Shown piece by piece: positions 10,415 to 15,866 of a stretch of 64,000 nucleotides of DNA. Numbering within the stretch: the first letter of the stretch is position 1; each line of letters opens with the position of its first letter. Origin of the DNA: Escherichia coli (GTDB lineage: Bacteria > Pseudomonadota > Gammaproteobacteria > Enterobacterales > Enterobacteriaceae); assembly GCF_048403405.1 (NCBI RefSeq), contig NZ_CP183129.1. One strand, written 5' to 3'. The notes beneath the pieces are model-generated. The model was given only the letters and a program-made list of their open reading frames with translations. It did no database searches and was not told the DNA's origin. Both the position numbers and the translations under genes were made by a program.

Positions 10415-11026
10415 CTACTTACGTTGATCATCTACCGTGACGCCTTGCGGCGGGGTGAAGGTAAATTTCGCTGCTTCCACAGCCCCATTTTGCTGGGATT
10501 TCAGTTGATAACTACTGCGCTGATCATCCTGCTCCACCGCGCTAAACTGATGGATTGTGCCATCACGTCCCACGTTAATGGTGAATTGCTTCAGATTGCC
10601 ATTGCTGGCTTTCGGCGTCAGGACAAAGTCATCGCCATTCTGTTTGATATTGTACTGCTGCCAGTCGCTGGACTGGTTGCGGGCAATCAGCATAAACGGC
10701 GTATTACCGGTGGCGTCTTTCAGCCAGGTCGCCGTAGCTTGCTCAACGAACGGGTTATAGAACCACAGTGTTTTACCGTCAGAAACCAGAATGCTTTCAT
10801 CAGGTTGAGTCATATGCCAGTTGAATAAGTTTGGACGTTTCACCCACAGATCGCCCTGACCTTCCTGCACCGCCGCGCCGCTACCGTCAGTCACTTTTTG
10901 TGTGAAGCTGGCGTGGAAGCTGCTGACTTTATCCAGGCGGCTTTTCAGATCGCTTGCGGCATCAGCCCAAACGCTGCTTGCTACTAAGCTTGAGAGTAAT
11001 GCACAGGTGATGGCAATTTTTTTCAT
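10415..11026 (-). CDS. lolA: Outer-membrane lipoprotein carrier protein LolA
   Basis: Track ORF starts MMKK; second ATG gives the 203-aa LolA with signal peptide [21 protein letters not shown]. Confidence 0.9.
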
Positions 11027-11138
11027 CATTATTCCTCAAATTACGTCACTCCCGACCGGGAGCTCCCTCTACTCTCTATTCCAGGCTAATAATCAGCTTG
11101 AGGAAAGAAGAAAATACTGAATTTTCAGTTACCAGATT

Positions 11139-11174
11139 GCCGGATGCGACGCTACCGCGCCTTATCCGGCCTAC
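11139..11174. repeat. REP (repetitive extragenic palindromic) element
   Basis: gccggatgcgacgc...gccttatccggcctac, the canonical E. coli REP motif, in the lolA-ftsK intergenic region. Confidence 0.8.
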
Positions 11175-11184
11175 GATGCATTAA

Positions 11185-14100
11185 TTAGTCAAACGGCGGT
11201 GGGGCCAGCACTTCACGATTACCGTTGTGCCCCTGTTCGCTGACAATCCCCTGCGCTTCCATCTGTTCGATAATACGCGCTGCACGGTTATAACCAATGC
11301 GGAACTGACGCTGTACGCCAGAAATTGATGCTTTGCGTTTTTCAGTGACAAACTGCACCGCCTGATCGAACAACGGATCCAGCTCTTCAGCGCCATCGAA
11401 ACCGCCCGCGCCACCTTCGCTTTCGCTGTCGGAGGTGATGCCATCAACATACTGTGGGCGACCACGCGCTTTCCAGTCCTGCACCACGGCATGAACTTCC
11501 TGATCGCGAACAAAAGCACCATGAACACGTACCGGCAACGTGGAGTTCGGCCCAGAGTAAAGCATATCCCCCATACCCAGTAGTGATTCCGCGCCAGCCT
11601 GATCAAGAATGGTACGTGAGTCAATCTTACTGGATACGGTAAAGGCGATACGGGTCGGAATATTCGCTTTAATCAGACCAGTAATAACATCAACCGATGG
11701 ACGCTGCGTTGCCAGTACGAGGTGGATACCCGCGGCACGGGCTTTTTGCGCCAGACGTGCTATCAGCTCTTCCACTTTTTTACCTACCGTCATCATCAGG
11801 TCGGCAAATTCGTCCACCAACACCACAATGTACGGTTCTTTTTTCAGCACCGGATGCTGGGCATCCATACTGTCACCCGGCTTCCAGTACGGGTCTGGAA
11901 TCGGACGCATCATCCTATCGGCTTCAGCAATTTTTTCGTTATAACCCGCCAGATTACGCACACCCAGCGCAGACATCAGTTTATAACGACGCTCCATCTC
12001 GTTAACACACCAGCGCAGCGCGTTGGCGGCATCTTTCATATCAGTAACGACTTCCGTTAACAGATGCGGGATGCCTTCATAAACCGAAAGCTCCAGCATT
12101 TTCGGGTCGATCATGATGAAACGCACATCTTCTGGCTGTGCTTTATAAAGCATGCTCAGGATCATCGCGTTCACACCGACAGACTTACCGGAACCGGTAG
12201 TCCCCGCAACCAACAAGTGCGGCATTTTCGCCAGATCGGCAACCACCGGCTCACCGGCGATATCTTTACCCAGCACCACGGTTAATGGCGACGGATTATC
12301 GCGGAATTTGGCGTTATCCAAAACTTCGCGCAGATATACGGTTTGTCGTTTTTTATTCGGTAACTCCAGACCTACATAGGGTTTGCCAGGAATAACTTCA
12401 ACGACACGCACCGCCACCGTCGAAAGTGAACGGGCAAGGTCCCGTGACAAGTTAGAAATGCGCGCCGCTTTTACGCCAGGAGCCAGGTTAAGTTCAAAGC
12501 GAGTGATAACTGGCCCCGGAGAGTAATTGACGACATCGGCTTTAATACGGAAATCAGCCAGACGCGCTTCCACCAGACGCGCCATTTGTTCAAGCGCAAA
12601 GGTATCTACCGGCTCCACTTCGCTCGGCGGAGGTGTCAACAAATCCAAAGAAGGCAGCGGCGTCGTCGGTTTATGCAACGGACGGCTGTCGCCATTACGC
12701 ATCAACAGCGGATGAAGCAGGGTATCCTGCGGCTGTGGCGCAACTGGCTGTTGCGGCTGCGGCGCAACCGGCTGTTGCGGCTGCTGATACTGCGGCTGCT
12801 GTGCAACCGGCTGTTGTGGCTGCTGATATTGCTGCTGCGGTGCAACCGGCTGTTGCGGCTGCTGATACTGCGGCTGCGGCGCAACTGGTTGCTGCGGCTG
12901 CTGATAATGTTGCTGCGGTGCAATCGGTTGTTGCGGCTGCTGTACAGGTTCAACAATTGGCGTAAACAACGGTTCGTGTGGACCATCATCCAGCAACGCT
13001 TTCATTGGCGAAAATTCAAAATCATCCAGCGAGAACGGATTCGCCCCAGCCGGTTGTTCGCCGGAATAACGTTGTTGTTGAGTTTGCGCAAACTGACGAG
13101 CCAGTTCAGCCTCTGCCGCAGCATCTGCATCTTCTGCGTTTACGGGCACATCATGTTGATACTGTTCGCCATAGCGTTGCTGCTGTGTCTGGGCGAACTG
13201 ACGTGCCAGTTCATCCTGCTGCATCGCATCGATTTCATCATCGTTGTACTGATCGCCAGAATCGTACTGATTGCGCTGGGCTTCACGGGCTTTTTCTTCC
13301 GCCGCACGCTGTGAGGGCAGCTTAATACCGTAAGACGCCAATTCACGACGAGTTGGCACGCGGATACGTTTCGGTCGTGGCAACTGCGGGCCAATCCCCT
13401 CTTTGACCTGCGGACGCGGTCCACCGCTATTTGCCAGACTGAAGACTGGCGCGGCAACGGTTGCGGCAGCCCCCGTCGCCAGTGTCGCTTTTTTCACGCC
13501 AGATGCCAGCGGAGAAACAGCGGCAGCGGCTTCTACTGGAGGTACTGCTGCAACAGAAGGTGCTTTCAGCGAAGATTTGATCGGTTCTGGTTCTTTAACC
13601 GGTTCTGGAATCGGTTGATACCAGGCCGCAAGTTGTTCACGTTCACGGGCTCGCTTCTCTTCCACTTCTTCAAAGTAGTAAAGCGGCGGACGCGCGGGTT
13701 TTGTCTCTTCTACAACGGGTTCAGGCTCCACAACAGGCTGCTGTTCAACGGGTTGCGGCTGTTGGTACAACGGCTCCTGAGCGGCTGGCTGCTGATAAGT
13801 TTGCTCAGTCTGGTATGTAGACTGTGGAGCAAAAGTGGATTGCTGCTCTTCGGCTTGCCAGGCGTTACCTGCCACCGATTGTTCTGGCGCAGGGGCGTAA
13901 TACGGCTGTTGCGCAGACTGTTCCGGCGCAGGGGCGTAATACGACTGTTGCGCAGACTGTTCCGGCGCAGTTGCGTAATGCGGTTGCTGAACAGGTTGTT
14001 CAGCTGCAGGCGCATAATACGGCTGCTGTGGCTGTACAGGTTGTTGCAGCGGCTCATTATATTGCACTGCAGGCTGCGCATATTGTGGCTGCTGTGGGTA

Positions 14101-15237
14101 ACCTTCCGGTGCAGGAGCAATAACCGGCTCTCCCGTTTGTGGCCCCGGTACAGGCTGCCAGGCTACTGTAGGTTGTGCAGGTGGAACATCAACAGAGGCA
14201 ACAGGCGGCGTCTGAGTCACAGGTTCAACCGGCGCAGCCCAGCTTTGTGTCGCCGTGGTAGCAGCAGCTGCTACAGCAACAGGTTCGGTAATTGGCGCAC
14301 CGTTTAATAATGGATCGTATTCGTCATATTCTGGCTGCGTTGCACGATTGCCCGAAAAGAGGACGTCGTCCGGGTCGGCAGCCACACCGCGTGCAGTGTA
14401 GGTAATCTCTTCTTCATCATCCATCCGCTTACCGGAGAACAACGCAGCATCTGTTTGCCGCCCCATCGGATTAATGAATTTTTCCGCCAACCGTTTACGA
14501 CGCGCTAGCGCGCCGCGAAGAATACGGGCACGGCGTGATTCATGCTGTTTGCCGTGATTTTCATCTTCGTATTCTTCGTCGTCTTCATACTCATCTTCAT
14601 CGACCCAGGTATCATCGCGACGGGTACGATTACTGGCGAAGGTGAGAATATTTAAAATCCAGCCGCCGAGTTTTTCAGCAATGGTCACCCATGACCAACC
14701 GGTGAACAGCGTCAGGCCCGCTGCCCAAACGCAGAGCAGCGCAATAGTTCCCCCGCTACTGTGTAGCAGTGGTTGTAGCGTAGTGCTTAGTAAGCTGCCA
14801 ATGACGCCACCGGAGGCAAAATACCAGATATCGTCAGCGTTGATTGCCGCCAGACCACAGGAGGTAAGGATGAGCGCCAAAACGCCAATGATGCGTAGCG
14901 AAACGGCAAAATAATCAATGTATTCGTCGCTGGACTGATGACGCCAGGCAAACCAACAACCGCCGACAATAATGACGGGAATGGTGTAAGCCATCACGCC
15001 AAAAATAAAGAACAGCGTATCTGCCAGCCACGCACCGGGCATCCCACCTAAATTATGGATAGGTTCATGCCAGGCCGTTTGCGACCAGCTGGGGTCCGAA
15101 GGGTTAAAGCTTAGTAAGGCAGCCATCAACCAGACGGCAAACAGGACAATAAGGATCAGCAACGCCTCCAGAAGGCGGCGGCCGCTACTTAACTTTGTCA
15201 ATGTGACTTCTTTGTCTTCAGTGTATTCCTGGCTCAA
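11185..15237 (-). CDS. ftsK: DNA translocase FtsK
   Basis: 1350 aa; N-terminal membrane domain, long Pro/Gln-rich linker encoded by tandem DNA repeats, C-terminal Walker-A motor domain (GTTGSGKS). Confidence 0.95.
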
Positions 15238-15371
15238 GAAAGGCTCTCCAGGTTACAGGCTTTTCCTGCCCGATGCTAAAACGGACAACAGTACCAGGTT
15301 ACCCCAGTACTGTTGCTGTATGGATTAACAGGAGTGTAATCAAAATACGCCGATTTTGCACCTGTTCCGTG

Positions 15372-15866
15372 TTAGCGCGTCTTAATAACCAGACGATTAC
15401 TCTGCTTAACTTCTTCCATAACAACGTATGTCCGTGTGTCATTGACGCCAGGCAGACGCAGCAGGGTTTCCCCCAACAACTTACGGTAAGCTGACATATC
15501 CGGCACGCGTGTTTTCAACAGGTAGTCGAAATCACCGGATACTAAATGACACTCCTGAATTTCTTCAAGTTTTTGTACAGCGGTATTGAATTGTTCAAAC
15601 ACATCCGGTGCGCCACGATTCAGAGTAATCTCAACGAATACCAGAAGTGATGCATCCAGATAATGAGGGTTCAGCAGCGCCGTATAGCCCTGAATAAACC
15701 CTTGTCTTTCCAGCCGACGCACACGCTCAAGGCACGGCGTTGGGGAAAGTCCCACACGTTTAGAAAGCTCGACGTTAGAAATACGCCCATCCTTTTGCAA
15801 CTCATTAAGAATGTTACGATCGATACGGTCGAGATCTTTGCCAGGGCGCTTCTTGCTATCTACCAT
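15372..15866 (-). CDS. lrp: Leucine-responsive regulatory protein
   Basis: Start moved to MVDSKKRPGKDLDRIDRNIL..., giving 164 aa as in Lrp; AsnC-type HTH. Confidence 0.95.
   Translation of the reverse strand: MVDSKKRPGKDLDRIDRNILNELQKDGRISNVELSKRVGLSPTPCLERVRRLERQGFIQGYTALLNPHYLDASLLVFVEITLNRGAPDVFEQFNTAVQKLEEIQECHLVSGDFDYLLKTRVPDMSAYRKLLGETLLRLPGVNDTRTYVVMEEVKQSNRLVIKTR

Follow-up and report, generated by a model that had tools for sequence, protein, structure and literature searches.

Gene context and domain architecture of ftsK

The window, the 64,000-nucleotide stretch of Escherichia coli DNA analyzed here, carries among its listed open reading frames a gene for the DNA translocase FtsK (Table 1). 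The open reading frame matched the ftsK annotated in RefSeq for E. coli TUM14771 (WP_000077093.1) with 100% identity. Outside the repeats described below, it shared 98.8% nucleotide identity with ftsK of E. coli K-12 MG1655, which is 3990 nt long, encodes 1329 aa, and has the TTG start in common with it. The genes lrp and lolA flank the window gene, and the order lrp-ftsK-lolA is also seen in reference genomes. Both its near-identity and its genomic context identify the open reading frame as the E. coli ftsK ortholog.

The encoded protein has the complete architecture of an FtsK/SpoIIIE translocase (4TM, alpha, beta, and gamma), and all four Pfam scores were far over the curated cut-offs. No Pfam domain was found between aa 192 and 860, a span that contains both repeat blocks. 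Proline and glutamine made up 29% of the whole linker, 46% of the upstream repeat block, and 75% of the downstream block. Judged by Pfam and composition, the region is a low-complexity Pro/Gln linker without a folded domain, and reviews describe the FtsK linker as unstructured, PQ-rich, and varying in length between species (PMC5357621; PMC5345879). This linker joins the membrane and division domain to the DNA-pumping motor.

A search for structured RNA found no Rfam family at gathering score in 10900-15500. Stop-free reading frames inside ftsK on the plus strand (12586-13314, 12633-12965, and 13615-14307) and on the ftsK strand in another frame (13710-14120) were judged to be by-products of the stop-poor CAG/CCG repeat composition within a well-supported gene.

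Table 1 Features of ftsK and its repeat blocks, with in-silico amplicons of published typing loci (window positions).
Feature	Position	Strand	Residues	Remarks
ftsK CDS	11185..15237	-	1350 aa	DNA translocase FtsK; TTG start; from the open reading frame list
FtsK_4TM membrane domain (PF13491)	14665..15180	-	20-191	Pfam E = 5e-42; upstream end of linker
Upstream repeat block (block U)	13873..14043	-	399-455	57 aa; 39-bp unit; VNTR locus ms06
ms06 amplicon	13760..14138	-		379 bp, largest of three published size classes
Downstream repeat block (block D)	12727..12945	-	765-837	73 aa; VNTR locus ms07/CVN001
Fused last unit of block D	12727..12786	-		60 nt; 12-residue piece, then QPVAPQPQ
ms07 amplicon	12631..13202	-		572 bp
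CVN001 amplicon	12626..13055	-		430 bp; (430-250)/39 = 4.6 repeats by published formula
FtsK_alpha domain (PF17854)	12355..12657	-	861-961	Pfam E = 1e-29; motor start, downstream end of linker
FtsK_SpoIIIE, beta, P-loop (PF01580)			969-1182	Pfam
FtsK_gamma (PF09397)			1285-1345	Pfam

Two arrays of 39-bp units in the linker

An earlier sequence-only reading had placed two tandem-repeat blocks in the linker, and TRF recovered both where they had been reported. Block U was detected at 13880-14025 with a period of 39, 3.7 copies, and 81% matches (score 180), and block D at 12752-12942 with the same period, 4.9 copies, and 86% matches (score 284). A repeat-family search returned four copies at 39-bp spacing in block U and two families with alternating 24/15 spacing in block D. 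The fraction of matching bases at lag 39 was 0.80 in block D and 0.73 in block U, and in 2000 codon shuffles no value this high arose at any lag between 9 and 90. Both blocks therefore consist of head-to-tail units of at least 10 bp repeated beyond chance, and are coding VNTRs (minisatellites).

The peptide units were as the sequence-only reading had written them. However, the unit lengths that it gave, about 24 and 45 bp, had to be replaced by 39 bp (13 codons) in both blocks according to TRF, repeat families, and autocorrelation, a length already implied by its own 13-residue peptides. There was no signal at lag 45 in block U (0.37), and the 24-bp period is only a sub-period of the block D unit (39 = 24 + 15), appearing locally by TRF at 12728-12784, where the last two units of the block are fused.

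Codon-level decomposition resolved block U into an 11-residue piece, three 13-residue units, and PAPEQSV. Block D comprises four full 13-residue units and the fused terminal unit, its end lying 24 residues ahead of the FtsK alpha domain. Compared with a K-12-type array, the fused unit is without 15 nt of the type CAG TAT CAG CAG CCG (Q-Y-Q-Q-P), and CAGCCG microhomologies border these absent nucleotides.

Comparison with K-12 and variation across E. coli

The K-12 length of 1329 aa given in the sequence-only reading, against 1350 aa here, proved correct, and protein alignment located the net difference of 21 aa wholly within the two repeat blocks. The difference thus lies neither outside the repeats nor in the choice of start codon, and the start codon and N-terminus are identical in both proteins. 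Block U has two more units than in K-12 (+26 aa), and block D is 5 aa shorter, the 5-aa alignment gap falling in the fused last unit. Among 5,426 complete E. coli genomes, the fused-unit configuration occurred only in six genomes with an identical linker, and this 1601-bp linker was base-for-base the same in all six, which are separately recorded. The window allele is therefore a combination of the long state of block U (379-bp class) with a rare, slightly shortened state of block D, which together give 1350 aa.

Population figures were obtained from systematic samples of about 59 of the 5,426 complete genomes, a RefSeq collection that is biased toward clinical lineages. Block D was sized with a 1701-bp long-flank query, as megablast with the 430-bp CVN001 query split more than half of the genomes in two. 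In the 59-genome sample, FtsK length ranged from 1316 to 1407 aa in 11 classes, and the 1350-aa allele was near the median (25 shorter and 33 longer). Block U had three states of nearly equal frequency, 57 aa (20 genomes), 44 aa (20), and 31 aa (19), and a single genome had 25 aa. Block D was mostly 78 aa (22 genomes) or 91 aa (26 genomes), with further states of 83 (two), 104 (three), and 117 aa (two), and rare short states of 57, 65, 70, and 73 aa in one genome each. The last of these is the strain of the window itself, whose block D is below both common states.

When 14 alleles representing 11 length classes were decomposed, the non-repeat part was constant at 1220 aa and every allele was in frame. 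These alleles combined a block U of 31, 44, or 57 aa in many ways with a block D of 65-130 aa, one allele reaching 130 aa; one further strain had a block U of 25 aa. Copy number is thus strain-variable (four states of block U and nine of block D), with the rest of the gene constant, and the repeat number varies between strains as the sequence-only reading had expected. Its description of the linker as expanded holds relative to K-12 but not for the species, since the allele is near the median and block D is 5 aa shorter than in K-12. K-12 itself is near the short end of the FtsK length range and carries the shortest common state of block U. Block states were lineage-specific and consistent in all sampled K-12 and O157:H7 records.

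Correspondence to published typing loci

Published MLVA primers map onto both blocks, which shows that their polymorphism was already known; typing schemes have relied on it since about 2007. For ms06, the primers match exactly at 14119-14138 (minus strand) and 13760-13779 (plus strand), and the in-silico sizes in the 14 alleles were 301, 340, or 379 bp. The source of these primers reported three ms06 alleles with amplicons of 301-379 bp and a 39-bp unit, and many ms07 alleles with amplicons of 392-821 bp and a 39-bp unit (PMC8215070). According to the same source, both loci come from a Shigella/E. coli MLVA panel (Gorge et al. 2008, J Clin Microbiol 46:1026); they are also known as SF33 (ms06) and SF12 (ms07) (PMC2806262). 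Primers, the 39-bp unit, and ms06 sizes agree with the window blocks, and nothing essential differs.

The ms07 primers match exactly at 13183-13202 (minus strand) and with three mismatches at 12631-12650 (plus strand). The window size of 572 bp is 15 bp off the 39-bp ladder because of the fused last unit, and typing would class the allele as intermediate or imperfect. CVN001 belongs to the generic E. coli MLVA of Lindstedt et al. (2007), the primers, 39-bp unit, and 250-bp offset of which are quoted in PMC8143711. Its primers match exactly at 13037-13055 (minus strand) and, for the reverse primer, with two mismatches at 12626-12645 (plus strand), and the repeat number of the window allele is non-integer. 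They bracket block D, so CVN001 is the same locus as ms07. Block U is thus ms06, and block D is ms07/CVN001.

Repeats at the same position in other Enterobacterales

In Salmonella, the ftsK VNTR SENTR2/STTR7 has a 39-bp unit, with 9.3 copies in S. Enteritidis (PMC2430564), and a natural two-repeat indel at residues 757-784 of the PQ-rich linker has been described (PMC6137255). This locus shares with block D the 39-bp unit and a pre-motor position matching aa 765-837, whereas it belongs to another genus and has more copies. It appears to occupy the same place as block D, orthology being suggested by position and unit size.

Other Enterobacterales were compared through the best 80 matches of a contig scan, among which Salmonella and full-length E. 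albertii did not occur. Among these matches, in-frame PQ repeats were present at the pre-motor position with units of 9, 36, 39, 42, 45, and 72 bp. The 39-bp units were found in Citrobacter, Kluyvera, and Pseudescherichia, and 36-bp units in Leclercia and Siccibacter. Enterobacter sp. Bisph1 had 42-bp units, Superficieibacter 45-bp units, Pseudocitrobacter 72-bp units, and Xenorhabdus and Photorhabdus 9-bp units. The block of E. albertii was short, with a poly-Ala run. Compared with E. coli, these linkers are lineage-specific in unit length, sequence, and copy number.

Gain and loss of repeat units

Strains with nearly identical ftsK genes differed by whole units. Strains 2015C-4498 and 2013C-4225 had no differences in 3663 nt of non-repeat ftsK, yet their block D differed by exactly two units; K-12 and 23CRST009, with two differences in the same 3663 nt, were one unit apart. 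In AST20 a two-unit segment was duplicated (A B A B), and in ETEC6335 a three-unit segment (A B C A B C). Variants of 15 and 24 bp match the internal 24+15 repeat structure of the unit. The blocks thus change in register by whole units on otherwise identical backgrounds, as is characteristic of VNTRs, and there is good support for slippage or unequal recombination as the source of unit gain and loss. The sequence-only reading had anticipated this origin, and the observed changes by whole units or sub-units bear it out.

We propose that misalignment of units would add or remove whole 39-bp (13-codon) units and, at internal CAGCCG-type microhomologies, also 24- and 15-bp sub-units. Replication slippage could cause the misalignment, as could unequal homologous recombination. 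Because each step is divisible by three, neither the reading frame nor the flanking domains are affected. A variety of copy numbers evidently survives in wild isolates, so that length alleles persist there and mark lineages, and the variation in copy number is probably close to neutral.

It should be noted that the arrays do not mutate fast. Most units of an allele were distinct in DNA (34 DNA variants among 76 units), and this divergence, together with the linker shared by six genomes, means that the slippage rate must be modest. Part of the variation could reflect exchange of alleles among lineages instead of de novo slippage. Differences between units were mostly at third codon positions (8, 23, and 84 at the first, second, and third positions, respectively), with 77 synonymous and 32 non-synonymous codon changes. 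This pattern suggests that the peptide motif is under purifying selection and that the repeats may do more than serve as a neutral spacer, which counts against a purely neutral view of the arrays.

Alternative explanations and the role of linker length

A length difference of this kind might be an artefact of assembly or annotation, through repeat collapse or expansion or through a different start codon. Such repeats can be mis-assembled, and ftsK of E. coli CRE10 is indeed annotated as 'frameshifted', with a scrambled block D. However, six complete genomes with separate records share the identical linker, the protein begins with the same start codon and N-terminus as in K-12, all 14 decomposed alleles are in frame with an invariant remainder, and independent studies that sized the amplicons by PCR obtained classes matching the in-silico sizes. 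An artefact is thus already refuted for the window allele and is extremely improbable. A tandem repeat with copy-number polymorphism in a coding sequence could likewise be a phase-variable contingency locus that switches FtsK function at high frequency. However, the 39-bp unit is divisible by three and every observed variant keeps the reading frame; the units are diverged; the allele is stable in six genomes; and the K-12 and O157:H7 states are lineage-specific. In addition, division depends on the essential N-terminal domain of FtsK. The short homogeneous unit shifting frame or promoter that defines such loci is absent here, so phase variation is effectively refuted and almost certainly does not apply.

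Selection might also tune how long the linker is or how many 13-residue motifs it contains, through motor reach or motifs for divisome partners, and thereby alter the coupling of division and segregation. Linker deletions lead to filamentation, and linker segments interact with FtsQ, FtsL, FtsI, and FtsZ (reviewed in PMC5357621). The peptide motif is kept despite many synonymous differences, similar Tyr-containing PQ units occupy the same position in Citrobacter, Kluyvera, and Pseudescherichia, and block U is confined to three main states with similar frequencies. However, motif conservation speaks for a role of the sequence and not of copy number, FtsK lengths of 1316-1407 aa occur in healthy wild isolates, and each block varies independently of the other. 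We found no evidence in the literature or in our analysis for a functional effect of natural FtsK length variation, and no tested phenotype is tied to natural copy-number variants. The literature yielded one allele-swap test, in which exchanging the Salmonella ftsK repeat indel between strains produced no phenotype in the assay used (PMC6137255). The earlier suggestion that the length may matter thus lacks support, and we consider such tuning unlikely. A specific form of functional role, which we regard as very unlikely, is that the 13-residue Tyr-containing PQ units, whose peptide is retained despite synonymous drift and reappears in other genera, are functional short motifs and not filler, and that their copy number in the pre-motor array (about 4 to 10 units) alters the tether reach or multivalency of septal FtsK. 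This would make the efficiency of chromosome dimer resolution, or its timing relative to constriction, measurably different between lineages. Taken against these alternatives, the best explanation, and very probably the correct one, is that the FtsK linker contains two protein-coding minisatellites (VNTRs) with in-frame gain and loss of units and persisting alleles.

Implications

The finding is real but ordinary, being a rediscovery of two VNTR markers with which E. coli and Shigella have been typed for almost two decades. The 1329 aa of K-12 are not typical of the species, so residue numbering based on K-12 shifts in most strains. Long-read assemblies can also create false frameshifts at the repeats, within a gene that cell division requires. 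Natural alleles, with 31-57 aa in block U and 57-130 aa in block D, offer a ready series of linker-length variants for tests of FtsK tether length.

Two 39-bp repeat blocks in the FtsK linker

The ftsK gene of the window is flanked by its canonical neighbours, lrp upstream and lolA and rarA downstream, and is 100% identical over its full length to ftsK of strain TUM14771 (WP_000077093.1). A megablast match annotated 'ftsK: DNA translocase FtsK' was present in 5,425 of 5,426 complete Escherichia coli genomes, with one genome lacking any ftsK match. Some genomes had 2-4 matching places, and 8 to 16 places in the searches of the 5,426 genomes fell on plasmid-labelled records. The Pfam domains leave aa 192-860 uncovered, which are therefore a domain-free linker between the membrane/division domain and the DNA-pumping motor. 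The E. coli linker has been described as ~650 aa long, unstructured, PQ-rich and different among species (PMC5357621; PMC5345879; PMC3870252).

Two tandem-repeat blocks, upstream (block U) and downstream (block D), were detected in the linker by TRF, and a repeat-family search agreed, resolving an internal 24+15 structure in the block D unit. The base-match fraction at lag 39 was 0.80 in block D and 0.73 in block U; apart from its multiple, 78, and a weak signal at 24 (0.61) in block D, other lags were unremarkable. Of 2000 codon-order shuffles, none equalled the observed autocorrelation, whichever lag between 9 and 90 was taken. Hence the repeats are genuine and lie where the sequence-only reading had placed them, but its units of ~24 and ~45 bp do not stand, as both blocks are built of 39-bp (13-codon) units.

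Features of ftsK in the window and of ftsK loci from other genomes (L numbers, own coordinates)
Feature	Location	Strand	Residues (aa)	Description
ftsK ORF	11185-15237	minus		1350 aa, TTG start
FtsK_4TM			20-191	Pfam
FtsK_alpha			861-961	Pfam
FtsK_SpoIIIE			969-1182	Pfam
FtsK_gamma			1285-1345	Pfam
Block U	13873-14043		399-455	one 11-residue and three 13-residue segments, then PAPEQSV
Block U array	13880-14025			TRF: period 39, 3.7 copies, 81% matches, score 180
Block D	12727-12945		765-837	four full 13-residue units and a fused 20-residue last unit
Block D array	12752-12942			TRF: period 39, 4.9 copies, 86% matches, score 284
Third repeat	13066-13112 and 13171-13217		~676-690 and ~711-725	14-residue motif, twice
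Acidic repeat	14560-14601			TRF: short 6- and 9-bp repeat
Overlapping ORF	12586-13314	plus		stop-free
Overlapping ORF	12633-12965	plus		stop-free
Overlapping ORF	13615-14307	plus		stop-free
Overlapping ORF	13710-14120	minus		stop-free
Pantoea sp. 1.19	L055 2094-2419			105-bp tandem array, 3 copies
Xenorhabdus ehlersii	L052 2158-2345			9-bp array, 20.9 copies
Photorhabdus cinerea	L087 2246-2350			9-bp array, 11.7 copies
P. thracensis	L053 2072-2114			9-bp array, 4.8 copies
E. coli CRE10	L095, NZ_CP034404.1 222487-226736			'frameshifted' ftsK, 4250 nt

Long stop-free frames of 110-242 aa also run across ftsK: three lie on the opposite strand, and a fourth shares the ftsK strand in another frame. 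All four translate into Leu/Arg- or Ala-rich repeats, and we rejected them as genes since they look like by-products of CAG/CCG-rich repeats. The acidic repeat encodes a 14-residue stretch directly after the membrane domain, and no length variation was seen in it across 14 alleles. The two copies of the third linker repeat share 81% DNA identity and are spaced by 35 aa (105 bp). This repeat was also found twice in E. albertii, and the Pantoea array carries an apparently related motif (…ALAAQFAAQQQ…). The motif may be functional and conserved, not filler.

Comparison with K-12

The K-12 MG1655 gene has 3990 nt, starts with TTG like that of the window, and encodes 1329 aa, the length given in the sequence-only reading. 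In the FtsK alignment, four residues within the first 400 were substituted, and the two gaps fell only in blocks U and D, so the length difference does lie inside the repeats. Block U was longer in the window by 26 aa (two 13-aa units) and block D shorter by 5 aa, a net gain of 21 aa. The simplest account of the 5-aa shortfall in block D is loss of 15 bp of the type CAG TAT CAG CAG CCG between CAGCCG microhomologies, fusing the last two units. The linker had been called expanded, a K-12-centred reading that holds for block U but not for block D, and the window allele is near the survey median.

Length variation among E. coli genomes

Ranked matches were sampled at even spacing, one representative was taken for each ftsK length found there, and 14 alleles were compared. 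Outside the two blocks, all 14 had exactly 1220 aa of protein, and the copy number of the third repeat is thus fixed in them. Block U came in three lengths (31, 44 or 57 aa) and block D ranged from 65 to 130 aa, combined in many ways, so that the predicted strain variability of repeat number was borne out. Strain H22 added a block U of 25 aa. Length distributions were taken from the spans in sampled match tables of the 5,426-genome searches.

Length distributions in sampled E. coli genomes (aa: number of genomes)
Region	Genomes	Lengths
Whole FtsK	59	1316: 1; 1329: 13; 1339: 1; 1342: 8; 1347: 2; 1350: 1 (query's own strain); 1355: 14; 1360: 1; 1368: 16; 1381: 1; 1407: 1
Block U	60	57: 20; 44: 20; 31: 19; 25: 1
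Block D	59	57: 1; 65: 1; 70: 1; 73: 1 (query's own strain); 78: 22; 83: 2; 91: 26; 104: 3; 117: 2

K-12 therefore combines the shortest common block U state with one of the two common block D states. The window allele pairs the longest common block U state with a rare block D state. Its exact 1601-bp linker occurred in six genomes (TUM14771, GN02461, 4621, MS 69-1, TUM1226 and OX030728), and the next best match had 97.8% identity.

The two blocks are well-known coding VNTRs, ms06 and ms07/CVN001, and the feature is already known. The ms06 and ms07 primers, from the panel of Gorge et al. 2008 as quoted in PMC8215070, flank block U (379 bp in the window) and block D (572 bp), respectively. In-silico ms06 amplicons over the 14 alleles were 301, 340 and 379 bp, matching the three published alleles of 301-379 bp; for ms07, seven alleles of 392-821 bp are given (both PMC8215070). 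The primers of CVN001, a generic E. coli MLVA locus scored in 39-bp units with an offset of 250 bp (quoted in PMC8143711), also flank block D (430 bp in silico). In the Shigella flexneri scheme, ms06 and ms07 are SF33 and SF12 (PMC2806262), and the Salmonella 39-bp VNTR SENTR2/STTR7 is located in ftsK (PMC2430564).

Changes in copy number

All length changes were in frame, in registers of 39 bp or in 24- and 15-bp sub-registers that yield QQPQY mini-units and the fused unit; an 18-bp in-frame change was a further variant, in block U of H22. Strains 2015C-4498 and 2013C-4225 had no difference in 3663 nt of non-repeat ftsK and block D exactly two units apart, and K-12 and 23CRST009 were 2 nt and one unit apart. 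Duplicated segments were visible at the DNA level as A B A B (two-unit) in AST20 and A B C A B C (three-unit) in ETEC6335. The slippage or recombination proposed earlier is consistent with such in-register, in-frame unit changes, and we infer that units are gained and lost by replication slippage or unequal recombination between them.

The ftsK of CRE10 is annotated as a pseudogene, and its block D is scrambled: the frame changes several times, and the flank directly upstream of the array is present a second time. A long-read assembly error in the repeat is the most likely cause, and a real rearrangement the less likely one.

The blocks are not hypermutable, since units inside one allele are mostly distinct in DNA (34 DNA variants in 76 units), the sampled K-12-type and O157:H7 records were uniform, and the exact window allele recurs in six genomes. 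Differences between units fell mostly at third codon positions (8/23/84), with 77 synonymous versus 32 non-synonymous codon changes. The peptide motif thus seems conserved even as copy number floats, and the 13-residue unit appears to be kept at the peptide level.

Parts of the linker touch FtsQ, FtsL, FtsI and FtsZ, and engineered linker mutations lead to filamentation (reviewed in PMC5357621; PMC5345879; PMC3870252). When a natural indel of two repeats at PQ linker residues 757-784 was swapped between two strains of Salmonella Enteritidis, egg-white survival was unchanged (PMC6137255). The earlier view that linker length may matter functionally is speculative. Given the apparent peptide conservation, copy number of the 13-residue unit might conceivably tune FtsK function, a reading we hold very improbable.

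FtsK linker repeats beyond E. coli

TRF was run on 79 FtsK loci among the best 80 matches, with one genome per species. Other taxa had in-frame PQ-rich arrays at the pre-motor position shared with block D, with lineage-specific units of 39 bp (Citrobacter, Kluyvera, Pseudescherichia, Escherichia sp. ESNIH1), 36 bp (Leclercia, Siccibacter), 42 bp (Enterobacter sp. Bisph1), 45 bp (Superficieibacter), 72 bp (Pseudocitrobacter) and 9 bp (Xenorhabdus, Photorhabdus). The 9-bp repeats, with unit GCAGCAACC/CGCAGCAAC, were perfect (100% identity), and such homogeneous arrays should undergo slippage much more readily than the E. coli arrays with their diverged 39-bp units. In E. albertii NBRC 107761 (L027, first 560 nt), block D had only about two units, with an 11-residue poly-Ala run (VQQQPAAAAAAAAAAAPQPQY…) in place of the E. 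coli PQ units. The recurrence of pre-motor arrays across taxa thus makes repeat-driven turnover at this position a general, unremarkable property of the family.
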